64,000 bases of DNA, taken from the IMG/VR virus record IMGVR_UViG_3300045995_000473; one strand, written 5' to 3'. A model generated the notes under the pieces. The model was not told the DNA's origin. It saw only the letters and a program-made list of their open reading frames with translations, and did not search any database. Every line of letters begins with the position of its first letter. Positions within the stretch are counted from its first letter, which is position 1. The DNA comes from a virus. Shown here one piece after another: positions 7,851-38,804 of the stretch. Made by a program: the position numbers and the translations under genes.

Positions 7851-9881
7851 TTAACCTGCGTAGGCGTTCTTTGCCAGTGTGCGGTGGTCCAGCGCTTTGA
7901 CTGCCGCATCCAGACGCACCTTGAACTCCACGCCGTCGATGTCCCAGCCGCCCTGCTGCTCCAGCGTCGGGGTACTAATTCCGTCAAGGTAGCTGACTTC
8001 TATGGTGTCGTGCATCGCCGGGTTGGCACAGCCGAACCAGTTGGTCGAGCTGGATGTGTCCAAACGTGCATCTTCGATGACTTCGAAGGTGCCACGTACG
8101 CTGTTTGGTGTAGTCTTGTCATTATTGGCGCCGACCTCAAATTCAGAGTTTGCCACCACGCGAGCTGTACCGCCCAGCGCCACAGGAACCAGCAGCTTGG
8201 CCAGCTTTAAGTTCAGCGCACCGCCGCCTGCAGTCTGCTTAGCCATCGCCACGCGCATCGCATCGACCGATGCGGTACTAATTGCGGCTGCGGTCGGCAG
8301 GTTGTTATGACCGGAATGGAACAGCGCCTTGCCGTCTTGCATGGTCGGGTTGCTCGTTAGGATGGCATAGACAAGATCACCTACCGTGCGGATCGCGGCA
8401 CGACCCATGCCAAGCGGTATCTTGCTAAATGCATCAAGGTCATCATTGATGATGGCCTGACGGGTCAGCATGAACTTGCGGCCATAGGTCGCCAGTTGCA
8501 CAGTCTCACCACGCTCGCCAACAGTGGCAAACTTGTACTCAGCGCCTTCCTTTACCTCAAGGAGCGTGGGGAAGTCGTTCAGACCAACGCGACGGCCTGC
8601 CTTGAAATCGGTCAGCGTGCCAATTGATGTCCACAACTGGAAGGTCTCTTCAGCCTCTTCGTATCCTTTGAGCATGGCCTTCTCTGCCACATTCGCCAGC
8701 AGTAGCGGGAAGTCGCTGGTAGAAGTAAATGCAGCGGCTACCACTTCCAGCTTGCTCTTACCGCGCACATCCACATGTTCGGCTGACAGACATTCGCGGG
8801 CCATATCCATCAGTGAATAGCCACGGAACTGGTTGGCACGGTCATCCTTTGCCAAATTAGCACGCGCCATGATGGCGGACTGCATACCGGCGCGGGCTTT
8901 CTCGCGATCGCCTTCCAGCATTACGATGTGCGTGCCGGCGATTGGTGATGCGCCTTTGCCCAGATGCGCGAGCAGCTTGGCATTAGCGTCCTGCACAGAA
9001 CAGCTTATGTCATTTTCGCAAGCGGACTGTACTTCGCCGATACCAGCAATGGTGCTGAATTTGGCAAAGGTGGCCTTTATCTCGGTGCGGCGAGCCGCAT
9101 CGGCAACCAGCGCAGCATTTGCGGCGGCCTTGATTTGTTCGTCGGTTGCGGCAGCAATTGATGCAGGTGCCGCCGGTTGATTTGCTCCGGGCATAACGGT
9201 CTCCTTGGAGGTTGGTGCGGCGGCTGCCGCGATTACATTGCCGGAAACGCCCGGCAAGGACTTAAACCGCGCAGCCAAAGCGGCGCGATCAAAACTGGCG
9301 GCCATGGGCATGGCCTGAATGATAGAAGTGACAAAGTTTTCAGCGAGTGCCTGTTCGGCGGTGTACCAGTGGTCTTCACCATCAGTGAGCAGTGCCAGCA
9401 TGGCTTCAGTTGTCTGTCCGCTCTTCGCGGCGTAACTGGTAGACATTGCTTGTGCCCAGGTATCAAGCATGTCAGCAAATTCACGCAAATCAGCGCTATT
9501 TCCTGACGCATAACCCCACGGCGCATGAATCATCATCAGCGCGTTTTCGGCCATCTCGACCGTATCGCCTGCCATAGCAATCAGGCTAGCGATACTGGCG
9601 GCGATGCCATCGATCACAATAGTAGTTACAGCTTTGTGGCGCTTGATGCTGTTATAGATAGCGATACCATCGGAAACAGAACCGCCAAATGAGTTGATGC
9701 GGATGGTGATCTGCTCGACATCGAGTGCGGAAATTTCGCGCACAAAGTCGCTGGCAACGACAGAATCTCCGTACCAGCTTTCGCCGATGTCGCCATAGAT
9801 CAGCACTTCAGCCGATTTCACGCCTTGCGCGGCAGCGCGAGCGCGGATGCTGTACCATTTTTGTGAATTTGCTTGCGGCAT
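7851..9881 (-). CDS. ClpP-type prohead protease fused to major capsid protein
   Basis: N-terminal INSFGGSV..GIAIYN, DGIAASIASLIAMAG, MMIHAPW; C-terminal capsid-like TSDFPLLL..., FKVRLDAAVKALDHR. Confidence 0.9.
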   Translation of the reverse strand: MPQANSQKWYSIRARAAAQGVKSAEVLIYGDIGESWYGDSVVASDFVREISALDVEQITIRINSFGGSVSDGIAIYNSIKRHKAVTTIVIDGIAASIASLIAMAGDTVEMAENALMMIHAPWGYASGNSADLREFADMLDTWAQAMSTSYAAKSGQTTEAMLALLTDGEDHWYTAEQALAENFVTSIIQAMPMAASFDRAALAARFKSLPGVSGNVIAAAAAPTSKETVMPGANQPAAPASIAAATDEQIKAAANAALVADAARRTEIKATFAKFSTIAGIGEVQSACENDISCSVQDANAKLLAHLGKGASPIAGTHIVMLEGDREKARAGMQSAIMARANLAKDDRANQFRGYSLMDMARECLSAEHVDVRGKSKLEVVAAAFTSTSDFPLLLANVAEKAMLKGYEEAEETFQLWTSIGTLTDFKAGRRVGLNDFPTLLEVKEGAEYKFATVGERGETVQLATYGRKFMLTRQAIINDDLDAFSKIPLGMGRAAIRTVGDLVYAILTSNPTMQDGKALFHSGHNNLPTAAAISTASVDAMRVAMAKQTAGGGALNLKLAKLLVPVALGGTARVVANSEFEVGANNDKTTPNSVRGTFEVIEDARLDTSSSTNWFGCANPAMHDTIEVSYLDGISTPTLEQQGGWDIDGVEFKVRLDAAVKALDHRTLAKNAYAG

Positions 9882-22579: not shown

Positions 22580-22622
22580 ACAATTATTCTTGTTGACGTA
22601 TCAACAATTATAATTGTATAGT
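22580..22622 (+). promoter_or_regulatory. Left operator/promoter (PL-like) with two ACAA-N6-TTGT sites
   Basis: Sites 22580-22593 and 22604-22617 (24-bp period); TTGACG-N18-TATAGT. Confidence 0.75.
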
Positions 22623-25807: not shown

Positions 25808-26351
25808 TCTTGGTGGCGGCGTAAAAATGGCGCTGCCTACCGAAACTGTCGTACGCAACCTACTCGACAGCCTACGCCAACAACCCAGCACTACCAAGTC
25901 CAGCAGCCCGAGAATAGGCGAATACCTGACAACGGAGGGCGGCATCTATGCCGGCGACATTCTGGGTGATGACAAGGTTTTGTACGGGCTAGTCATCAGC
26001 GAGGAAATCGAGATCGGCACGGCGATCTTTGGCCATGAGCATAACGGCGATCTGTCGCAATGGAATGGCCTGTCTAACACCAATACGCTGCTCGGAAAAT
26101 CACCAGCTGCCGACTTAGCTGCGAATTATGAGCGCAACGGGCATTGTGACTTTTATCTGCCTGCGCGCCGTGAGCTGATGATTGCGCTGGCGAATGTTCC
26201 GCAGCTGTTCAACCCGAAAGACTATTACTGGTCAAGCACCCCGCGCGGCAATGATTGTGCGTGGGCAGTGTACTTCGAGGGCGGCATCGTCCGCAACAAC
26301 ACTCGGGGCAACGAGTTCCGTGTTCGCCCCTTCCGCAGATTTACCCATTAA
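25788..26351 (+). CDS. DGR target protein 1, DUF1566-like C-type-lectin fold
   Basis: IGEYLTTEGGIYAG, FYLPARREL, YWSST...AWAVYF; 3' end is VR1; AAGGAG RBS. Confidence 0.88.
   Translation: MKPIEFDLGGGVKMALPTETVVRNLLDSLRQQPSTTKSSSPRIGEYLTTEGGIYAGDILGDDKVLYGLVISEEIEIGTAIFGHEHNGDLSQWNGLSNTNTLLGKSPAADLAANYERNGHCDFYLPARRELMIALANVPQLFNPKDYYWSSTPRGNDCAWAVYFEGGIVRNNTRGNEFRVRPFRRFTH
26260..26341 (+). repeat. DGR variable repeat VR1
   Basis: Aligns to TR 27350-27431 with 10 mismatches, 9 at TR adenines and one G>T. Confidence 0.93.
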
Positions 26352-26383
26352 CCCATTTATCAATTTTTAACAGGAGAATCACC

Positions 26384-26800
26384 ATGAACGAAAAGAAAAT
26401 CACGGTACCCAAAATAGGCGAACTTTGGGCAGAGCAAGGCGGTATTTATTGTGGTATGCGCCTCATAGGCGGCGAGGAACATCACGTTGTCACGCCTGCC
26501 GGTATTGATCACGACCTCACTGAAAAAAATTTTGCCGCAGCGGAATCTGCACAGTTCGGCGAAATCAACGGCCATAGCGATTGGCAGACTGGTGAGCAGG
26601 AAGATTACATGCTGGCATATGTCAACGCGCGCGCGCAATTCAAGTGCGACGGCGGCATGGATAGCGTTTACTGGACACGCTCTGTTCATCACGGCTGGGC
26701 GTGGGCAGTGGACTTCGAGAACGGCCTCGTCTACTACGACGTTCGGCGCAGCGAGTTCCGTGTTCGCCCCTTCCGCAGCTTCATCGCTTCATCAATTTAA
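26384..26800 (+). CDS. DGR target protein 2, DUF1566-like C-type-lectin fold
   Basis: ATG 26384 with AGGAG RBS; IGELWAEQGGIYCG, YWTRS..AWAVDF; 3' end is VR2. Confidence 0.9.
   Translation: MNEKKITVPKIGELWAEQGGIYCGMRLIGGEEHHVVTPAGIDHDLTEKNFAAAESAQFGEINGHSDWQTGEQEDYMLAYVNARAQFKCDGGMDSVYWTRSVHHGWAWAVDFENGLVYYDVRRSEFRVRPFRSFIASSI
26700..26785 (+). repeat. DGR variable repeat VR2
   Basis: Aligns to TR 27350-27435 with 13 mismatches, all at TR adenines. Confidence 0.96.
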
Positions 26801-26807
26801 CAATTTC

Positions 26808-27177: not shown

Positions 27178-27446
27178 CGCCGACTTTGCCAAGGCAATTT
27201 GGACAACGCGCTATGAATCTGGTCGAGCCGCTAGGGTACGCCCTACCGCCATGCGCATCAGAAATATCGTCGGCGAATGCCGAAATGATTTCGCGCAGTT
27301 TTCTAATTGAAGCAATGCCTCGATTTGAAAACGTGAATAGCTTGAATATCGTGGGCAGTGGACTTCGAGAACGGCAACGTCAACAACAACAATCGGAACA
27401 ACGAGTTCCGTGTTCGCCCCTTCCGCAAATTCAACCGAGATTTTCT
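27178..27446 (+). ncRNA. Putative DGR template RNA region (avd-RT spacer including TR)
   Basis: Hairpins TAGGG-TACG-CCCTA (27232-27245) and TCGGC-GAAT-GCCGA (27270-27283) upstream of TR. Confidence 0.6.
27350..27435 (+). repeat. DGR template repeat TR
   Basis: AAC-rich (GAG AAC GGC AAC GTC AAC AAC AAC AAT CGG AAC AAC GAG); matches both VRs outside adenines. Confidence 0.96.
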
Positions 27447-28547
27447 ATGGATACTGAATATTCAATCGAATTACTGGCCGAGGCATATAAAGACTGCCGC
27501 CGCCATAAACGCAACACAGACAGCGCACTCCGCTTTGAGCAGAATCTTGAGCACAACCTGATTGCTTTGCACGATGAACTGTCAGACGGCTCATATAAGC
27601 CAGGGAAAAGCATCTGCTTTGTCATCACCAAACCAAAGCCGCGCGAAGTATGGGCAGCGGACTTTCGCGACCGCATCGTGCATCACCTTCTCTACAACCG
27701 CCTTGCGCCGATATTCCACGCCAGATTTATTGTTGATAGCTGCGCCTGCATACCGGGTCGAGGCACGCTATACGGCGCAAAACGGCTTGAATCGAAGGTG
27801 CGCAGCATCACTCAGAACTGGAGCAAACATGCGTATTACCTGAAACTGGATCTGGCCAACTTCTTTGTCAGCATCGACAAGAATATCTTGCGCAAACTGA
27901 TCGCAAAGCGTGTCACCGAACCGTGGTGGATGCAGCTAGCCGACACGATCCTGTTTCACGATCCGCGCCAAAACTATGAGCTGCGCGGTGAGCCTCGCAT
28001 GCTCGACTTGGTGCCGTCACACAAACGTTTAACCAACCACCCAGCACACCTCGGCTTGCCGATTGGTAATCTCAGCAGCCAGTTCTTCGCCAATATCTAC
28101 CTGGACGAGTTAGACCAGTTCTGCAAACACAAGCTACAGGCGCGCCACTATATCCGCTATGTGGACGACTTCCTGATTCTGCATGAATCACCGCAATGGC
28201 TCAACGCGGCCAAAGCCGAGATTGAAGAGTTTCTGTTCGACGAATTGCGTGCCAAGATTAACCCATCAAAAACCATCCTGCAGCCGGTGTCGCGCGGCGT
28301 CGACTTTGTTGGACAAGTAATTCGGCCTTGGCATAGAACGACGCGCAAACGCACCATCAATGAGGCGATGCGCCGCGTCAGCACTGTCGATAGCGCAGAA
28401 CTCTACGAAACAGCGAATAGCTACTTTGGGCTTATGCGTCAGGCTACTCACAGCTATCACCAAAGAGTATTGCTATCGAATGTCCTGCGTAAACGCGGCC
28501 ATACGATCAGTGCCAATTTAACCAAGACTTATAGGAAAACAGCATGA
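27447..28547 (+). CDS. DGR reverse transcriptase
   Basis: ADFRDRIVHH, YLKLDLANFF, GLPIGNLSSQFFANIYL (DGR-type GxxxSQ), YIRYVDDF; likely start MDTEYS, 366 aa. Confidence 0.95.
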   Translation: MDTEYSIELLAEAYKDCRRHKRNTDSALRFEQNLEHNLIALHDELSDGSYKPGKSICFVITKPKPREVWAADFRDRIVHHLLYNRLAPIFHARFIVDSCACIPGRGTLYGAKRLESKVRSITQNWSKHAYYLKLDLANFFVSIDKNILRKLIAKRVTEPWWMQLADTILFHDPRQNYELRGEPRMLDLVPSHKRLTNHPAHLGLPIGNLSSQFFANIYLDELDQFCKHKLQARHYIRYVDDFLILHESPQWLNAAKAEIEEFLFDELRAKINPSKTILQPVSRGVDFVGQVIRPWHRTTRKRTINEAMRRVSTVDSAELYETANSYFGLMRQATHSYHQRVLLSNVLRKRGHTISANLTKTYRKTA

Positions 28548-28810
28548 CTGAACTAACCCTATTTTTATCTACCGCCTCGCTAGTCTTTGCGCTGGGGCTG
28601 CAACAGCTCAACGTACAGGGTCATCATTACATGCTGGCAGCGCTAACTAGTTTCCTAATCGGCGGCGCACAGATCTACCTGTGGCGCACTATGCCAGGCG
28701 CATCCGGAAGCGAGATCATTGCCACCCTATGCGGCGGCCCGGTCGGGATTCTGGCAGCAATGTACTCACACCCTAGGTTAGTTCGGTTTTTATTGCGGAG
28801 AAAATCATGA
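28544..28810 (+). CDS. Small multi-TM membrane protein
   Basis: Three hydrophobic segments in 88 aa; ATGA-coupled to RT. Confidence 0.7.
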   Translation: MTELTLFLSTASLVFALGLQQLNVQGHHYMLAALTSFLIGGAQIYLWRTMPGASGSEIIATLCGGPVGILAAMYSHPRLVRFLLRRKS

Positions 28811-29250
28811 TCACTCCTCAATATATTCTCGACATTAATGAAGAAATCATCGTCGATAATTTCGCTGGCGGAGGTGGTGCATCTACGGGTATTGAACTAG
28901 CGCTGGGGCGCCATGTAGATGTGGCTATCAATCACGATCCAGAAGCCGTATCTATGCATCAAGCAAATCACCCGCAGACGGTACACCACTGCGAATCGGT
29001 ATGGGAAGTTAACCCGCGCGAAGTCATGCCAGGACGCTCAATCGGTCTGCTCTGGCTGTCACCGGACTGCAAGCACCACAGTAAGGCTAAGGGCGGAAAG
29101 CCAGTAGAGAAGAACATTCGCGGCCTCGCTTGGGTGGCACTGCGCTGGATAGCGGTACGCAAACCACGCGTCATCATGCTTGAAAACGTCGAAGAATTTC
29201 AAAAGTGGGGCCCGCTACCAAAATATCAATCGCAGGGAGCATCGGCATGA
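28807..29250 (+). pseudogene. Truncated C5 DNA cytosine methyltransferase (N-terminal part only)
   Basis: DNFAGGGG (motif I), SPDC (IV), ENV (VI), then stop at 147 aa; no TRD or motifs IX-X. Confidence 0.75.
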
Positions 29251-29480
29251 ATGACATTGAAAATCAGGTAATCAATTGCATCGCAGATCAGACCGGCCAC
29301 GATCCGGAACATATTAATCCATCTGACACGCTCCATTCTCTAGAAATGGATGAGATTGATCGGTGCGAACTGGCGATGATGATTGAGGATCATTTCGATA
29401 TCGTAATCAAGGATGCAGACGCTGAAAAATGGAGATCCGTACAGGACGTAATCAATCACATGATAAGGGCAAAACCATGA
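29247..29480 (+). CDS. Acyl-carrier-protein homologue lacking the phosphopantetheine serine
   Basis: 77 aa; LEMDEIDRCELAMMIEDHFDIVIKDADAEKWRSVQDVI aligns with AcpP [38 protein letters not shown]. Confidence 0.85.
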   Translation: MNDIENQVINCIADQTGHDPEHINPSDTLHSLEMDEIDRCELAMMIEDHFDIVIKDADAEKWRSVQDVINHMIRAKP

Positions 29481-30187
29481 GCGACGTATGCACAGAGCAG
29501 CGCTTCCTTACAGATGCCGCGCAGCATGAAATGACGATCATCCGCGATGATGGTGTGCACCGGCACATTCAATTCAAGCGGCCCGGTACCAGATGCTACC
29601 AGTTCGACCTGATCACATGGCCGGGATACCTATGCTACACGGGCGATATGGGAACCTATGTATTCACTCGGCTGCGCGATATGTTTGAGTTCTTTCGCAC
29701 CGACCGCGCCCACCTGCGACTTAAAGACGGGCAGACGCTGGCAATCAATCCGGGCTATTGGGGTGAAAAGCTTGAGGCGGTTGATAAGTGTGACGGCTTC
29801 AAAGAGTTCAGCGAAGAAAAGTTTAAGCGCTCTGTGATGGAGTATCTAGTTCGATGGATTCGTGAAAACTACAGTGATACCGACAAGGACGAGCGGCGCG
29901 AACTATGGGATGAGGTAATGAGTCAGGTTATCGATGTTGATGATGACAATAGCGGGAGCCGTAAGCAGGCCGCAGTGCACGACTTTACACGCCATGTAAA
30001 TCAGGCCCTTGACTTTGAATTCGTGGACTTCTGGGAGCACGACCTTACCGACTATTCATTCCGATTTATGTGGTGCTGCTATGCGGTGGCATGGGGCGTG
30101 CAGAAATACGACGAAAAGAAGGCAGAGCCATGCGCTCATGTTGTTTGCGAGGCCGATGTATGTGCAAAGTGTGGGGATGCAGCATGA
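29477..30187 (+). CDS. Phage hypothetical protein
   Basis: IRDDGVHRHIQFKRPG...LITWPGYLCYTGDMGTYVF; ATGA-coupled. Confidence 0.75.
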   Translation: MSDVCTEQRFLTDAAQHEMTIIRDDGVHRHIQFKRPGTRCYQFDLITWPGYLCYTGDMGTYVFTRLRDMFEFFRTDRAHLRLKDGQTLAINPGYWGEKLEAVDKCDGFKEFSEEKFKRSVMEYLVRWIRENYSDTDKDERRELWDEVMSQVIDVDDDNSGSRKQAAVHDFTRHVNQALDFEFVDFWEHDLTDYSFRFMWCCYAVAWGVQKYDEKKAEPCAHVVCEADVCAKCGDAA

Positions 30188-30212
30188 AGGAATTTATAAA
30201 GGATGGTGTGTG

Positions 30213-30437
30213 ATGAGCATGTTCATCTCTAGCAATGAACTCGCTGAGCTAACTGGCTACAAGGTTGGGTTCTATCAAGCACAGTGGCTCAAGGATCACG
30301 GCTACCCGTATGAGCTGACAATCAGCGGGAAACCACGTGTCCTGCGCGCATTCGTTGAAAAGCGCCTCGGGCTTGCCAGCGTAATTCCAAAGTCGCAAAC
30401 TGAGCCTGACTTTTCATCCTGGAAGAGAGCCGCATAA
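30213..30437 (+). CDS. Excisionase-like protein (DUF4224-like)
   Basis: FISSNELAELTGYK...QAQWLKDHGYPY...GKPRVLR; stop overlaps integrase start. Confidence 0.75.
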   Translation: MSMFISSNELAELTGYKVGFYQAQWLKDHGYPYELTISGKPRVLRAFVEKRLGLASVIPKSQTEPDFSSWKRAA

Positions 30438-31504
30438 TGGTTGGGAAACGCAAGACCGCATCATCGCTACCTCCGCGCATGTATGTCTATAAAGGTAAGC
30501 GTAAGGACACTTATTACACCATCACGGCTGACAACAAACGTCTTAATCTCGGACATGAGCTGCTGCTGGCTAAGCGCAAGCTGCTTGAGCTCGAAGAAGG
30601 CCGAAGCATATCCGGAACAATCGGCGAGCTGCTGGATGACTATCTCAAAGAGGTTAAAGCCAAGGTTGAGAATGGCAAACGCTCTGCCCTGACGCTGCGT
30701 GACAATGAAGCGGAGATCACTCAACTCAAAAAAGCATTTGGCGGTATGCAGCCGAAGGATTTACAACCTGCGCACGTATGGGCTTATCTGCACAAATTCA
30801 GGGGAAAAGACGCACCGGTTCGCGCAAATCGCGAGGTTTCTTACCTACAGGCATCATTCAATTGGGCGCGAGGACAAGGAATCGTGCGAGATAACCCTTG
30901 TGTCGGCGTACAGCGCAACGAAGAGGAGTCGCGAACCCGTATGGTCAGCGACAGAGAGCTAGACGCCTTTGTGGCATTCTGCCGCACTAATGGCCATCTT
31001 GATGATGCCAGCGAGCGCAAAGATAGCAGCGACGCAGGATTGCGCATTGCTCTGTGCGCCCGTATCGCCTATCTGACAGGGAAAGCACAGGCACAAGTGC
31101 TAAGTATTCATAAAAACCAGATAACTGATGAAGGTATTTTATTTGGCCAACGCAAACGCGGCGCTGCAACACTGGTTGAGTGGACGCCGACGCTGCGCGC
31201 TACGGTAACTGAATGCCAGGCACTCCCCAGCAAGATAATCAGCATGTATCTGATACATAGCCGCAGTGGGCAGCCATACAGCACACAAGGATTCAAAGCT
31301 ATGTGGCAGCGTCTAATGAAGGCGTGGCTGGAATCAGATGAGAGTAATGTGAGGTTCACTTTTCATGATCTACGCGCAAAAGCTGTCACAGATCTGATTG
31401 AAGATGGCCGAAAAGCCAGTGAATTAACCGGGCATAGAACTGAGAGTATTCCGGCTAAAGTATATGACCGCAGAGCTGTTAGAAAATCGAAGGCGGTGAA
31501 ATGA
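30437..31504 (+). CDS. int: Tyrosine integrase
   Basis: Catalytic-box-like FTFHDLRAKAVT and LTGHRTE...KVYDR; adjacent to att core. Confidence 0.92.
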   Translation: MVGKRKTASSLPPRMYVYKGKRKDTYYTITADNKRLNLGHELLLAKRKLLELEEGRSISGTIGELLDDYLKEVKAKVENGKRSALTLRDNEAEITQLKKAFGGMQPKDLQPAHVWAYLHKFRGKDAPVRANREVSYLQASFNWARGQGIVRDNPCVGVQRNEEESRTRMVSDRELDAFVAFCRTNGHLDDASERKDSSDAGLRIALCARIAYLTGKAQAQVLSIHKNQITDEGILFGQRKRGAATLVEWTPTLRATVTECQALPSKIISMYLIHSRSGQPYSTQGFKAMWQRLMKAWLESDESNVRFTFHDLRAKAVTDLIEDGRKASELTGHRTESIPAKVYDRRAVRKSKAVK

Positions 31505-31555
31505 TCTTACAAAATTCGCGTTTTATCTTACAAAAAGCGTAAATGATAGAAATGA

Positions 31556-31588
31556 AAAACCCGCTAACTCATTGAATTAGCGGGTTTT
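31556..31588. terminator. Bidirectional intrinsic terminator
   Basis: AAAACCCGCTAA-ctcattgaa-TTAGCGGGTTTT. Confidence 0.8.
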
Positions 31589-33542: not shown

Positions 33543-36197
33543 TTAGACTACTGGCTCAATACTGCGCAGCTCGCCGCGTACCACTTCAGACATACGATTC
33601 CCACCCAATGTATTCGGGTGTAGTAATGCCCCATCGTCATTGATAAACGTGCGGATGTTTGTCGCGTTCCAGCCTGATTTACCTTGCGTGTCGATGCAGG
33701 GTATCCCGTGATATTTGCAGGCAATGCGAATCGCATCCGCATAATCTCGCGTGGTTAATCCAATCGAATTTGTGTATGCATTAGTCCAAAATGGGGACGC
33801 TGTAACGCGGGCGTACAGCTCACCGTAGGTTGTCGTCATCATTACAATGCGAGACGCGGGGAAACGAGTTAGCAGCTTCGTTACCAGTGTATAAATCGCA
33901 CCATAAAAGGTAGTTGGATCAGTTGATGCTACAGTCCCGAGAGGAATATTTTGCGCCCAGTCATTTGTGCCGCCGAGTACTGTTATCAAATCCATTGGCG
34001 TTGGAATTGCATTAATTCGAGCATCTTGACACATTGCGGTAGTGCTCCCAGATGCGCCGCTTAATGTTGTCCCAGATACACCAAAATTTGTATGAGTCAT
34101 CCCTAATGACATTGCTACATTTGGCTGCCACGCATTTTGGTTGGTAATGCTATCGCCAAGTGACGCCCACAGCTTTCCAGCCCATAGCGTTACAGGAGTC
34201 GAGTTAACAGGGAAAATAATCTCGCCATTGGTTAGCGCTAAATTGTATCCGTAGGCTTGATATGCCGTTGCCGATGCCCCGATTTCAAGTTGGAAGCTGG
34301 TGATATCTACCGTAGACAATGTGACGCGAACGAACGCTACACCTGAGGGAGCAGTAAATGCGAATGACGCAGCAGATGCGCCACCAGCAACTACGTTTTT
34401 ATTCGCGTCAAAATAGGTGGTAAAGCGCATCCCATTACCGCCAGACCCTTTTCCGTAGTACTGTGTTCCTGCAACTACAGGAATAAAGTCAGAAATCGCG
34501 AATGTAGGCTGTGTACCGACAATCGTTCCATCCGACCCCATAAAGCTATTCGCAACAAACCCCGATGCAAACCGATTAAAGCGATTTTTTCCTACTTGAA
34601 AGAAGTTAGTCTTTAACGGAGATACAGCACTATCTGCAAGTTTTGCATTAGTCACTGCCGCTGCTGCGAGCTTTAAGCTGGAAATAATCCCGTCAGCAGG
34701 AATCGGCGGGATTATCAACTCACCGTTTGGGCCGTAGACCATGAAACCAAATGTCTCATAGGCGGTTGATGCGCTTCCAAGTTCAAATTGTGCTGCCGCA
34801 AGATCAGCGGTGCTGAAAGTCAGTCTGACATAAGAAACACCAGCCGGAACGGTAATCTGCGTGGAGTTTGCACTTGCTCCCCCAGCGACAAAGCCCTTTC
34901 CTGAATCGAAAAAGGTTGTGAAGCGCATGGTTTTATTTGCCGTATATACAGATCCAGATTGCACCTTTATATAATCCGTTACGAAAAATGTCGGCTGTGA
35001 TCCAAATATTCCGCCGTCCGCACCCATAAACGAATTTGCGAGGATTGTCGCTTTATTGAAAAGGTTCCTACCGGGCGTTATAAAGTTTGTAAGGTCAGGA
35101 GAAATCGAGCCAATTGCGTGCATCAGGTTCGTTAAAGAACGCGCCTTTATCTCGGATGGGAGAAGATAAACACCATACGCCTCATATGATGTAGTGACAG
35201 ATCCAGCCTCAATCTGGAAGTTTGTATTTATTGCTGAAAAGGATACTCGTATAAATGCCGCACCTGCTGGTGCAGTGAGTGTGTGATTTGTATCTGTGTT
35301 AGACGTTCCGGATATGAATACCTTCGCTGAGGTATACCATGCGATATAGAATTTCTCGGACACGGTATAAACCGACCCTGCAACTACCAGGATGTAGCCT
35401 GAGCAGTTATATAAAGCATTGACTTGCAACGCCCCAGTTGTGGCCAGAACAAAGTTACCGGGCGCAAAATCCGAGGCGGAGGGATTGAATAAGTTTTTAC
35501 CTATTGCAAGATCAGCCTTTAACAGCAAGGAAGAGATAACTGCATCGTATGCTGACTTGCTAGGATATGTGGCAATCAGTGTTGATACAGTCACGGCATC
35601 GATCCTGCGATACTCGTACGCCGCGATAGAGCCTGTTCCTTGAACCTTGAAGTACGCGCCATTGGCTACCGCAGCGCGACCAGTTGGCTCGTCCACATAA
35701 ACACCAGCCTGAATCAATGATGCATCACGCGCGGCCTCTGCTGCCGTTTTAGCAACGGCAGATAGACCGGCTTGTGTCGTAGAAATTACAGCCTGCTCTG
35801 TGGCAATTATCACCTGTGGAGCGACAGCCGCAATACCTGCTGCGGCGCCTTCGATTTGCGCCTGTTCTTTTGTCGCGCCCTGGTGAATAATCCATTTCCC
35901 AGCCGCATAATCAGTAGCAAACACGCCAGCGATATGCGCCATCATGCTGCGATAAATAATCCCGCCCTGCGAAGCTAACACTTCCGCGTTATAGCTTGCC
36001 CCGGTTGCCCATGCGCCCATATCTGGATAGACCAGCGGCACATCTGCCAGGCCAAGCGCAGCGCGAGCAGTGGCAGATGTGCCATCACCACCTAGCAGAC
36101 CGCGCTGAAAATCCAGCGTCTGACCAAGTTTTGCTTTGAACTGCGCCTGAGTAACCGCAGGGTCAAGCAATTCGGAATTTGCGGGTAAAGTCGGCAT
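33543..36197 (-). CDS. Tail fibre/spike with three tandem beta-domains and C-terminal SGNH/GDSL esterase
   Basis: Three GKNLFN...TAPAGAAFIRVSF...FQIEAG..T.YE.YG repeats; LGDSIT, GVSG, GTND, D..LHPN blocks. Confidence 0.85.
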   Translation of the reverse strand: MPTLPANSELLDPAVTQAQFKAKLGQTLDFQRGLLGGDGTSATARAALGLADVPLVYPDMGAWATGASYNAEVLASQGGIIYRSMMAHIAGVFATDYAAGKWIIHQGATKEQAQIEGAAAGIAAVAPQVIIATEQAVISTTQAGLSAVAKTAAEAARDASLIQAGVYVDEPTGRAAVANGAYFKVQGTGSIAAYEYRRIDAVTVSTLIATYPSKSAYDAVISSLLLKADLAIGKNLFNPSASDFAPGNFVLATTGALQVNALYNCSGYILVVAGSVYTVSEKFYIAWYTSAKVFISGTSNTDTNHTLTAPAGAAFIRVSFSAINTNFQIEAGSVTTSYEAYGVYLLPSEIKARSLTNLMHAIGSISPDLTNFITPGRNLFNKATILANSFMGADGGIFGSQPTFFVTDYIKVQSGSVYTANKTMRFTTFFDSGKGFVAGGASANSTQITVPAGVSYVRLTFSTADLAAAQFELGSASTAYETFGFMVYGPNGELIIPPIPADGIISSLKLAAAAVTNAKLADSAVSPLKTNFFQVGKNRFNRFASGFVANSFMGSDGTIVGTQPTFAISDFIPVVAGTQYYGKGSGGNGMRFTTYFDANKNVVAGGASAASFAFTAPSGVAFVRVTLSTVDITSFQLEIGASATAYQAYGYNLALTNGEIIFPVNSTPVTLWAGKLWASLGDSITNQNAWQPNVAMSLGMTHTNFGVSGTTLSGASGSTTAMCQDARINAIPTPMDLITVLGGTNDWAQNIPLGTVASTDPTTFYGAIYTLVTKLLTRFPASRIVMMTTTYGELYARVTASPFWTNAYTNSIGLTTRDYADAIRIACKYHGIPCIDTQGKSGWNATNIRTFINDDGALLHPNTLGGNRMSEVVRGELRSIEPVV

Positions 36198-36206
36198 GAT
36201 TCGTCC

Positions 36207-38804
36207 TTATAAAGTTGATTTGGTAAATTCGGTTGAGTAATTCCAGGTCGTGCCGCCCCACTGGTCGCGTGCGCAGACGCGCAGGTAATAGGTCACGCCT
36301 GATGTCAGTCCGGCAATAACGCAGTTATTCGCTGTACCGGTATAAGCCAGCGTGCCCGCGCCAGGCGTGAATCCGCTGGTGGTGCTGATATGCGCCTGGT
36401 AATCCTTGAGATCTGTATCGGTATGCGCAGTCCATCCAAGCGTAATATCACCGACGGTCGCAACTGCACCGAGACCCATCACGGCGGATGGGATCGGATT
36501 GCTGAAGGCGATCTGCGAATAACCGGATAATTGACCGTTTGCACTTGCGGCGACCTTCAGCTCGAAATCGCGCCCAACATAACCATCGGTGATCGCATCT
36601 GCCAGCGAGTAGCTGAATTGAGTTGCAGTGGTCGTAATTACATGACGAAGCACACCGCCGGCCCATACATCTACATCGTAAAAAGCCGCGCCCGCAACCG
36701 CTGTCCATTGCGCAGTAAAATTCAGGCCGGTGAATGGTAGTTGCAGACCGAGATTCGCAGGGCCAGAAGGAAGTCCGCCAGTGACGATATGCGTGTAGGT
36801 GTTCACGTCAGCTAGATTTTCTTCCGCCTGCCCCCAAAGGTTGAAGCTGGTGAATTTGAAATACAGTGTTTTACCGACCAGATTGGCTGCAAGCGATTGT
36901 TTATAGATAGCCTGATCCAGCCGGGCAAAAGCCGCACCGACACTATGTGAGGCTGGCGTTGTGCCATATAAGCCACGGCGCAGATAGCTTAACGAGTAGC
37001 GCTGTGCGGCGGTCAGTGCAGCATCGCGGTAGGCGAATAATTCGCCGCCCAGGTAGCACAGCGTAATATAAGCATCCACATCAAACTGGCTGCCACCGTG
37101 CATCTGATCGGTGGTGAGTAAATCCGCGATGACGGTATTCGTCACATCAGGATTCGCCGTCGGCGCAGCAATCGCAGTGTTCAGCGTGCCGTAGCGCGCG
37201 CCGCCGACGATCTGACCGGTCTTCTGATAGCTCGACCCGTCTAGCGACAGCCAGATATTGCAGCCGCCCCAATTAACTCCACCGGCGACCGCACACCAAA
37301 GCTCATTGATACCGTTTGTCAACGCCAAAGGTGGCTCAATCATCAACGGCGCAGTAACGTGTCCAGGTGCAGCGGAAGCATTCGGCATTCCGCCGGTCGT
37401 CAACTGGCCATTACCCAGCATGGCAGAGGCAGACACGCCATAGACCAACTCTTCAGCCAGTACGGTTATTTCACCATCTTCGGCCTCATCGGTACTGATG
37501 ATACGCACGGGATACTCAATCAATCCCAGCTGCGATTCGTTCAGCGCCACAATATCCATCGGCTCAAGGCGAGCATAATTCCATCCCAGGCGGAATTCAT
37601 ATTCATTCCGGACATAGATCCCACGCTGTAACTTCATCTGTGCGCAGCGCGCAGCTACAGCAGGAGCCGCGATAAAATCCCATTTTGCTGTTTGTGCTGG
37701 ACGCAAACCATACTGCTCAATACAAGCCTGATCCTTTACTGTCACGGTAGTCAGGTTGTAGTCATTCGCCCGGCTGTTGTATTCAGCCTGAATCTCATTA
37801 AAGGCATCCACCTGAGCCTTGCGACGCACGATCACCGGCTGCTCTTTGTCCAGGTAGTCATCATCAGTCAGGTGATAAACCGGCGTGACATTCGGCATAT
37901 AAGTTACCCCGTTGCCTGTTACAGCTTCCTCGCCGTAAGGGATAACTTTCAACAACCCATCAGAATAGACCGGTGCACAGGCCAGTGCATCCATGATGTT
38001 GGTCCAATGATCAGCAGCGGATTTTTGAGCAATAAAGGCGGGTGAAATAAACAAGCTGTTAGCGATACACCAGTTATGAAACAGGCTCAGATCACCAAAT
38101 TCAGCAGCGGGTAATCCCGCGCCGTGGATCGGATGCGTCATAAAATCAATCAAGACATCTTTTGGCGCCGCATCCTCAATACTGGAGGAATACCGGCATA
38201 GGCCGCGCACTTCAAAGCTGTAGTTTCCTAATGAGGCAATGCCGGACAGCTGGTGATTGGCACTAGCCAGATAAGCCAGACCGCGATAATTCAGCGCATG
38301 ATCAGCATGGTAGGTTGACATAAATCCCCACGCGGCTTGTGATGCACCCCCGTCAAAAATCGTCCAACCTCCTGCTGCAGTCAGAAGCTGTGCAACTAGC
38401 GCAGAAATCATTGCTGTCATCCCGCCGCCAATTGCAGAATTGACTGGTGATGAAGCATTCCCAGTAACCGATGCAAGCGTGGCAAATTTGTTTTTATCCT
38501 GCCAAACCGCACCGATACTCACTTCACCTGAAGCACCGCCATGACACAGGCCGAGCGCGACCGTAGCTGAGTAGGTATACGTAGTATTTGAGGTCGTTAC
38601 GCCACCACCCTTCCCGCCGGATGACTGGGTGCTTGTATGGGGGGTTGCAACAAAATCCAGATAATCGATCAGATTTCCTGCGATACGAGTTTTACCGTAC
38701 AGCAGCGGGATCGGCGTGCCATAGGACGATTGTTGAATCTGCATCGATCCGATGCGCGGATCCGTAGTCGCAATTGTTTGCCCGCCGCCAAATAAGTTGC
38801 CCAT
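36207..38804 (-). CDS. Tail tip/host-specificity protein with C-terminal FN3-like domain
   Basis: SSYGTPIPLLYGKTRIAGNLI, YRGLAY, NYSFEVRG; C-terminal VTYYLRVCARD. Confidence 0.85.
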   Translation of the reverse strand: MGNLFGGGQTIATTDPRIGSMQIQQSSYGTPIPLLYGKTRIAGNLIDYLDFVATPHTSTQSSGGKGGGVTTSNTTYTYSATVALGLCHGGASGEVSIGAVWQDKNKFATLASVTGNASSPVNSAIGGGMTAMISALVAQLLTAAGGWTIFDGGASQAAWGFMSTYHADHALNYRGLAYLASANHQLSGIASLGNYSFEVRGLCRYSSSIEDAAPKDVLIDFMTHPIHGAGLPAAEFGDLSLFHNWCIANSLFISPAFIAQKSAADHWTNIMDALACAPVYSDGLLKVIPYGEEAVTGNGVTYMPNVTPVYHLTDDDYLDKEQPVIVRRKAQVDAFNEIQAEYNSRANDYNLTTVTVKDQACIEQYGLRPAQTAKWDFIAAPAVAARCAQMKLQRGIYVRNEYEFRLGWNYARLEPMDIVALNESQLGLIEYPVRIISTDEAEDGEITVLAEELVYGVSASAMLGNGQLTTGGMPNASAAPGHVTAPLMIEPPLALTNGINELWCAVAGGVNWGGCNIWLSLDGSSYQKTGQIVGGARYGTLNTAIAAPTANPDVTNTVIADLLTTDQMHGGSQFDVDAYITLCYLGGELFAYRDAALTAAQRYSLSYLRRGLYGTTPASHSVGAAFARLDQAIYKQSLAANLVGKTLYFKFTSFNLWGQAEENLADVNTYTHIVTGGLPSGPANLGLQLPFTGLNFTAQWTAVAGAAFYDVDVWAGGVLRHVITTTATQFSYSLADAITDGYVGRDFELKVAASANGQLSGYSQIAFSNPIPSAVMGLGAVATVGDITLGWTAHTDTDLKDYQAHISTTSGFTPGAGTLAYTGTANNCVIAGLTSGVTYYLRVCARDQWGGTTWNYSTEFTKSTL

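Follow-up and report, generated by a model that had tools for sequence, protein, structure and literature searches.

Why does a temperate phage keep an acyl carrier protein (ACP) that has lost the residue to which the cofactor is attached? The question is raised by a 77-residue protein encoded in the IMG/VR virus record IMGVR_UViG_3300045995_000473, of which we analyzed a stretch of 64,000 nucleotides (the window). Ser36 of E. coli AcpP carries 4'-phosphopantetheine; the phage protein has glutamate at the aligned position. The original prediction, made from the DNA letters and open reading frames, saw in the protein an acidic decoy that could titrate ACP-binding host proteins.

The gene belongs to a lambda-like temperate phage with a genome of 38 kb. 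The window covers a genome unit of exactly 38,059 bp 1.7 times over: positions 1 to 25941 are identical to positions 38060 to 64000, and the ORF coordinates recur at +38,059. It represents a circular or concatemeric phage genome, and its unique sequence is shorter than 64 kb. The phage genes include those for a gpA terminase, a lambda-type portal, a ClpP-capsid fusion, a tape measure protein, a tail fiber with an SGNH esterase, CI- and CII-like regulators, a primase-helicase, a DUF4224 excisionase-like protein, and an integrase, and the phage carries a DGR with two Lcl_C-type targets. The capsid fusion is a single ORF for 676 residues (7851 to 9881, minus strand), in which a ClpP-type prohead protease domain is joined to a major capsid protein domain. 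The 884-residue tail fiber-like protein (33543 to 36197, minus strand) has a GDSL/SGNH esterase domain at its end and is probably a receptor-modifying (deacetylase-type) tail enzyme. The ACP ORF lies within a long plus-strand gene block that extends from about 23.4 kb to the integrase, and the top promoter-like site of the region is at 22593 to 22622. No tRNA was found in the 38,059-bp genome unit. Pfam scans of 36 ORFs, a set that includes most larger ORFs of the 38-kb genome, detected no PPTase, Fab, or acyltransferase genes, and precomputed Pfam matches gave no acyl-handling genes at the loci of relatives. One relative that retains the serine (L024) is a prophage adjoining purA and hisZ (L024 12054 to 14234). 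Its purA product is 80% identical to that of a Methylobacillus MAG and 75 to 78% identical to those of Thiobacillaceae and Nitrosomonas, which points to betaproteobacterial hosts for this phage group.

The phage protein is an ACP homologue. It matches the Pfam PP-binding family (PF00550) with 43.2 bits (E-value of 4.7e-11; gathering cut-off, 20.8 bits) over profile positions 2 to 66 of 67, and PHROG 5934, annotated "acyl carrier protein," at 5.5e-12. All ACP models of NCBIfam matched as well, each below its equivalog cut-off (for TIGR00517, 51.2 versus 70.45 bits). In a phmmer search of the PDB the alignment with E. coli AcpP (1l0i and 1l0h) spanned the whole protein at about 33% identity, and the identities fall exactly where they had been predicted, at D35, D38, E41, L42, M44, E47, F50, D51, I54, D56, A59, E60, K61, V65, Q66, and I69. 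Glu36 aligns to Ser36 of AcpP and to the serine of four other solved ACPs, which confirms the proposed change of the DSL motif to DEI. The AF2 model, built from an 89-sequence alignment, has a mean pLDDT of 93.5 and places helices at residues 3 to 16, 36 to 50, 56 to 59, and 65 to 75, so that helix II starts at Glu36. Foldseek matched the model to AcpP chains at TM scores of 0.82 to 0.90, including chains in complexes with FabZ, FabH, LpxD, BioH, and AcpS, and to many phage ACP-fold proteins; the structural matches were all ACPs. The frame is intact, it is preceded by a ribosome-binding box, and it overlaps both the upstream and the downstream ORF by an ATGA stop/start, in agreement with the coupling on both sides that had been read from the DNA (Table 1). 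A megablast search with positions 28500 to 30500 gave no match among GenBank phages, a tblastn search of phages with the protein returned distant ACPs only (30 to 41% identity), and PADLOC gave no match for the ACP, its neighbors, or the KTSC and 268-residue proteins of relatives.

Table 1. Coordinates of the ACP gene, its flanks, and associated features (positions in the window unless a relative is named)
Feature	Position	Strand	Remark
C5 cytosine DNA methyltransferase, N-terminal fragment, 147 aa	28807..29250	+	Frame ends inside the ACP cassette leader; ATGA overlap with the ACP ORF
ACP cassette leader	29233..29246	+	GGGAG ribosome-binding box at 29235-29239, 7 nt before the ATG
ACP-fold (PP-binding) protein without the cofactor serine, 77 aa	29247..29480	+	ATG at 29247; TGA at 29478-29480
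Codon 36, GAG (Glu)	29352..29354	+	Aligned to Ser36 of AcpP
Codons 39-40, CGG TGC (Arg-Cys)	29361..29366	+	Accompany Glu36
Codon 62, TGG (Trp)	29430..29432	+	Ile62 in E. coli AcpP; invariant in the family
phiTE_072-like protein (PHROG 4657), 236 aa	29477..30187	+	Downstream of the ACP gene; ATGA overlap
DGR 111-nt repeat, first copy	26256-26366		
DGR 111-nt repeat, second copy	26696-26806		80% identity to the first
DGR 111-nt repeat, third copy	27346-27456		72% identity to the first
KTSC-domain gene, relative L001	5750-6001		Directly before and overlapping the ACP gene
KTSC-domain gene, relative L007	2787-3047		Directly before and overlapping the ACP gene
KTSC-domain gene, relative L024	6744-7004		Directly before and overlapping the ACP gene

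Compared with E. coli AcpP, the phage protein has the same length, the four-helix fold (TM score of 0.85 to 0.9), and the docking residues D35, D38, E41, M44, E47, D56, and E60. It differs in having Glu for Ser36 and Trp for Ile62, and its genome has no fab or PPTase genes. The features of a functional carrier are missing, namely, the serine of the D-S-L motif, a score above the TIGR00517 cut-off, and the company of fab, PPTase, or acyl-handling genes; what is present is a phage-encoded ACP fold with its docking helix intact, an acidic residue at the serine site, and no partner enzyme. The lost serine and the retained residues support the prediction of an ACP homologue with an intact acidic docking helix that would not be loadable with 4'-phosphopantetheine at the canonical site. 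Without such loading the protein would not be an acyl carrier, and we regard it, on its sequence, as a member of the ACP superfamily that has apparently lost the carrier function.

What could an ACP do that carries nothing? We hypothesize that it is a cofactor-less look-alike that acts purely by binding, a reading to which we give about an even chance. The acidic face of helices II and III, which ACPs use for client docking, would be retained whole, and the look-alike would bind through this face to a component of the host rather than to a phage partner. In its most probable form it would be a permanently apo-like competitor or modulator of at least one ACP-binding host protein. The conservation of helix II could, however, reflect the stability of the fold as much as docking.

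The distribution of the gene bears on this hypothesis. A search of 5.8 billion proteins yielded a family of 13 full-length clusters and one fragment; a scan of viral contigs added one viral locus, a scan of genome contigs gave no family locus, and a scan of metagenome contigs recovered one locus that was already in the set. Residue 36 occurs in three states in this family. Eight clusters have serine in the motif D-S-I/V-D-x-V, with the codon TCG invariant among them; four have glutamate in the motif D-E-I-D-R-C, encoded by GAG; and one (P0283) has glutamine in the motif D-Q-I-D-R-I, encoded by CAG. The step from TCG to GAG takes two base changes. Codons 39 and 40 differ as well, reading ACG GTC/GTT or GCG GTT in the Ser alleles and CGG TGC in the Glu alleles, and Arg39 is retained although its codon differs, being CGG where residue 36 is Glu and AGA where it is Gln. 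Among 13 to 14 family members no change was seen at D35, D38, E47, D48, D56, or E60 and hardly any at E41 and M44; the ends of the proteins vary. One ACP copy was seen per phage genome.

The original prediction had allowed for a one-off mutation, recognizable by close homologues that keep the serine. Several close homologues, 68 to 73% identical to the window protein, do retain it, but the glutamate is no one-off: it is found in four clusters and several samples, with glutamine in a fifth cluster. Ser-less alleles are present in several freshwater samples, and three of the Glu clusters come from several independent samples. A piece of one wetland contig is identical to the window across codon 36, and in two more diverged alleles, with 7 and 15 differences from the window, none of the differences listed falls at codon 36 or at codons 39 and 40. 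Between Ser-less pairs (dS of 0.4 to 2.3) the dN/dS ratio is 0.10 to 0.165 by the Nei-Gojobori method, no higher than between Ser-type pairs (0.13 to 0.32); synonymous changes occur in the codons that flank codon 36, and GAG itself is fixed. This purifying selection, together with an unchanged codon 36 in contigs of other studies, argues that the Ser-less state is old, inherited, and selected. A literature search found no published description of Ser-less phage ACPs or of phage ACP mimics.

The selected sequence sits in a shuffled neighborhood. Across the xis-int region (L023 393 to 1758 versus window 30219 to 31584), the window and a sister phage (L023) share 96.3% identity; their ACP genes share 76.6%. 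The left boundary of the homology lies at 29233, 14 nt before the ATG, and includes the ribosome-binding box. The 236-residue downstream protein of the window is absent from L023. The upstream ORFs of the two phages differ, yet their last five residues, encoded by the cassette leader, are identical. The upstream ORF of the window codes for a methyltransferase fragment with motifs I to VI only (SAM-binding, catalytic-Cys, and ENV); it covers about the first 115 to 130 positions of models that are 310 to 460 long and lacks the whole C-terminal half, and a related contig (run X4) skips positions 28811 to 29209. From the sequence, the methyltransferase ORF looks truncated at the cassette junction. 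The comparison with L023 shows a self-contained mobile accessory cassette with its own ribosome-binding site that moves between phage backgrounds.

The neighbors of the cassette vary accordingly across the family. The downstream gene has five forms, encoding the phiTE_072-like protein (the window and the contig of the Ser allele P0005), a protein of 266 to 268 residues (L001, L007, and L012), a 196-residue zinc-finger protein (L024), another protein (L013), or DUF4224 (L023). The upstream gene has at least four, among them the methyltransferase fragment and a gene for a KTSC-domain protein (L001, L007, and L024). The KTSC proteins have 83 to 86 residues and about 80% mutual identity, and their gene, which precedes both Ser and Glu alleles, is the sole recurrent neighbor of the ACP gene. 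At one of these loci (L007, positions 929 to 2704), a 591-residue YqaJ-type exonuclease encoded beside RecT has a precomputed match to the family of T7 gp5.9, a RecBCD inhibitor, and may thus be a fusion of a recombinase-exonuclease with an anti-RecBCD module.

We also considered a connection with the DGR. As had been noted, the ACP gene lies downstream of the RT ORF, at a distance of 700 nt from the end of the latter (28547). Of the three 111-nt repeats of the DGR, two are variable regions, one at the end of each Lcl_C-type target gene, and one is the template region, which lies between avd and RT. The ACP gene has no similarity to these TR/VR repeats. The DGR cassette and the ACP gene are all that the window phage and a second phage (L002) have in common within a 12-kb locus, and their order differs between the two. 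We rejected a DGR role for the ACP gene because of the lack of repeat similarity, the difference in order, and the location of other Ser-less ACPs in loci without a DGR, and we regard the linkage as a sign that an accessory region has a common ancestry.

Could the protein instead serve a specific partner? A structural or adaptor subunit would stabilize or activate a particular phage or host protein without a cofactor, much as mitochondrial ACP serves complex I or the Fe-S machinery, and would not be an inhibitor. The Ser-less mACP of Plasmodium has just such an essential scaffold role, binding Isd11-Nfs1 (PMC8547962), and the phage ACP gene is always coupled by a stop/start overlap to some neighbor, in three lineages to the preceding KTSC-domain gene. 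However, the coupling to specific neighbors is not conserved in relatives, no neighbor is conserved family-wide, and the window has neither a KTSC homologue nor a homologue of the 266- to 268-residue protein. The 236-residue neighbor, which we considered as an ACP client, was dropped since no ACP gene lies upstream of its nearest homologues (94% and 83% identity). It belongs to a very large phage and prophage family (1387 matches at an E-value of ≤1e-5; Atlas neighbor "Phage_phiTE_072"). Its sequence has a W-C-C-Y-A motif, which is conserved, and a tail rich in Cys. Neither Pfam nor NCBIfam gave a match, and the confident AF2 model of the protein (pLDDT of 90.6) matched nothing in the PDB and only uncharacterized proteins in AFDB. 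An adaptor role is thus unlikely in our judgment. With a sequence kept under selection while its neighbors shuffle, the simplest account would be that the look-alike acts alone, on a target supplied by the host.

The Ser and Ser-less alleles belong to one gene pool. The Ser allele P0005 is 87% identical to the Glu allele P0002, and over residues 42 to 73 the identity is 100%, whereas residues 34 to 41 of P0005 form a Ser-type patch. A Glu allele (P0003) and P0005 come from one and the same run. The identity over residues 42 to 73 indicates that the two states have been exchanged within one gene pool; the patch at residues 34 to 41 appears to have moved between backgrounds by intragenic recombination or reversal, two routes that we judged from protein sequences only. 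The two states are interchangeable enough for coexistence, which weakens the idea that the glutamate is indispensable. Given the near-copy Ser allele and the 8 of 13 members that keep serine in the same contexts, the family may tolerate the loss of serine, which would then not be what the protein is for, and the Gln36 allele speaks against a negative charge or a phosphomimic being strictly required.

Alternatively, the family could consist of orphan phage carriers that are loaded by the host AcpS. The Glu and Gln alleles would then be loss-of-function or dominant-negative variants, persisting in a dispensable gene or as regulators of the Ser form. The invariant TCG of the Ser-type members fits such a family, as do the Ser-type orphan ACPs of many phages (e.g., Bajun, GAP32, and RHph_X2_30/24) and the recombination of Ser and Glu alleles in the same context. 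Nevertheless, we consider this account rather improbable. A dispensable or broken gene would drift or decay, but the Ser-less alleles are under purifying selection as strong as that on the Ser alleles, over dS values above 1, which disfavors null alleles. With a single ACP copy seen per genome, there is moreover no Ser form for the Glu form to regulate.

Replacement of the serine by an acidic residue recurs beyond the family. In 92 representatives of other short ACP-like clusters, obtained by an exhaustive profile-free search, the serine column contains Glu in six and Asp in five and no further non-Ser residue. The nearest relatives of the Ser-less outgroup clusters are mostly of the Ser type (8 of 11 compared), which points to several independent losses of the serine; the number of losses, read from the states of nearest neighbors, is a rough lower bound, because the tree of the 89 ACP-like proteins has poor resolution, with 50 of its 86 inner branches open. 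Both of the Ser-less outgroup clusters that we examined are on phage-like contigs. Of the ACP homologues in GenBank phages, five retain D-S-L, and that of Pseudomonas phage Lu11 reads D-E-T-D. The orphan phage ACPs of PHROG 5934 are likewise small, acidic ACP-fold proteins without partner enzymes, and an acidic residue at the serine site recurs among them. What sets our family apart is its setting in small temperate lambda-like phages of freshwater bacteria and the Ser/Glu/Gln polymorphism in one gene pool. Trp62 is shared more widely, being present in 34 of 80 aligned outgroup ACP-like sequences with or without the serine. Ile62 of AcpP lines the acyl pocket, so a bulky Trp would suit a protein that does not bury an acyl chain. 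We take this as a lead only; Trp62 may be the signature of a subgroup of phage-type ACPs in which the acyl pocket is filled.

The acidity of the protein calls to mind the nucleic acid mimics of the Ocr, ArdA, Gam, and T7 gp5.9 type, and the ACP fold could be a mere scaffold for blocking a host nuclease or restriction system. The protein is small, with a net charge of −12 and a pI of 4.4; in relatives its gene directly follows RecT and the YqaJ exonuclease with the gp5.9-like domain, and in the window it abuts the truncated DNA methyltransferase. Yet DNA mimics present an elongated, B-DNA-like acidic surface and are usually dimers, whereas the phage protein is modeled as a compact, monomer-type four-helix bundle that matches the ACP fold only, and its invariant residues are those specific to ACP-client docking. 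We know of no DNA mimic with an ACP fold and regard this explanation as very improbable. A sequencing or assembly error or a decaying pseudogene is refuted by the two base changes that would be needed, the same codon in contigs from several studies, the intact frame, the confident fold prediction, and the low dN/dS of the Ser-less alleles.

How might a cofactor-less look-alike that acts by binding affect its host? Host ACP is among the most abundant proteins of the cell, and a simple competitor would therefore need a high copy number or a much higher affinity. Precedent for an effect by binding alone comes from E. coli apo-ACP, an ACP without the prosthetic group, which is reported to inhibit glycerol-3-phosphate acyltransferase and growth more strongly than holo-ACP (PMC3896788). 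Whereas apo-ACP is a short-lived precursor open to conversion by AcpS, the phage protein would by analogy be genetically locked in the unloaded state, with an extra negative charge at the site. The decoy of the original prediction, which would be made early and titrate ACP-binding host proteins, perhaps with ACP-dependent toxins or defense effectors among them, is a plausible conjecture. SpoT, one of the targets it suggested, is reported not to bind apo-ACP (review, PMC3896788) and is therefore an unlikely one.

The closest natural parallel is the mACP of Plasmodium and other Apicomplexa, an ACP homologue that has lost the conserved serine and works by protein binding alone (PMC8547962), as the phage protein may do by analogy. 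The apicomplexan proteins have Phe at the serine position (Cys or Gly in Toxoplasma), bind the LYR protein Isd11, and operate in a eukaryotic organelle (PMC8547962), whereas the phage family has Glu or Gln at this site and a phage setting. The authors of the Plasmodium study found no Ser-less ACP outside the Apicomplexa and one chromerid (PMC8547962).

The coexistence of the three alleles invites a bolder version of the binding hypothesis, which we think quite unlikely as it stands: the switch between Ser, Glu, and Gln at residue 36 would be a balanced polymorphism in a conflict between phage and host, and the look-alike a host-takeover or counter-defense factor that acts on an ACP-binding host protein. 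Residue 36, by making the protein either loadable by AcpS or permanently unloaded and phosphate-like, would then decide which host variants are targeted or whether a sensor detects the protein. If this were true, serine-less ACP look-alikes would constitute a widespread, undescribed class of phage effectors.

ACP is a hub of fatty acid, phospholipid, lipid A, lipoate, biotin, and acyl-homoserine-lactone synthesis, and it also binds several nonmetabolic proteins. The locus described here contributes a natural polymorphism at the cofactor site, a mobile cassette without a partner, and a measurement of the selection on Ser-less alleles; with Ser, Glu, and Gln alleles in near-identical backgrounds, a length of 77 residues, and no partner gene, it provides a convenient entry point. 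If phage proteins imitate ACP without carrying anything, they would have a compact and general means of interfering with this hub.
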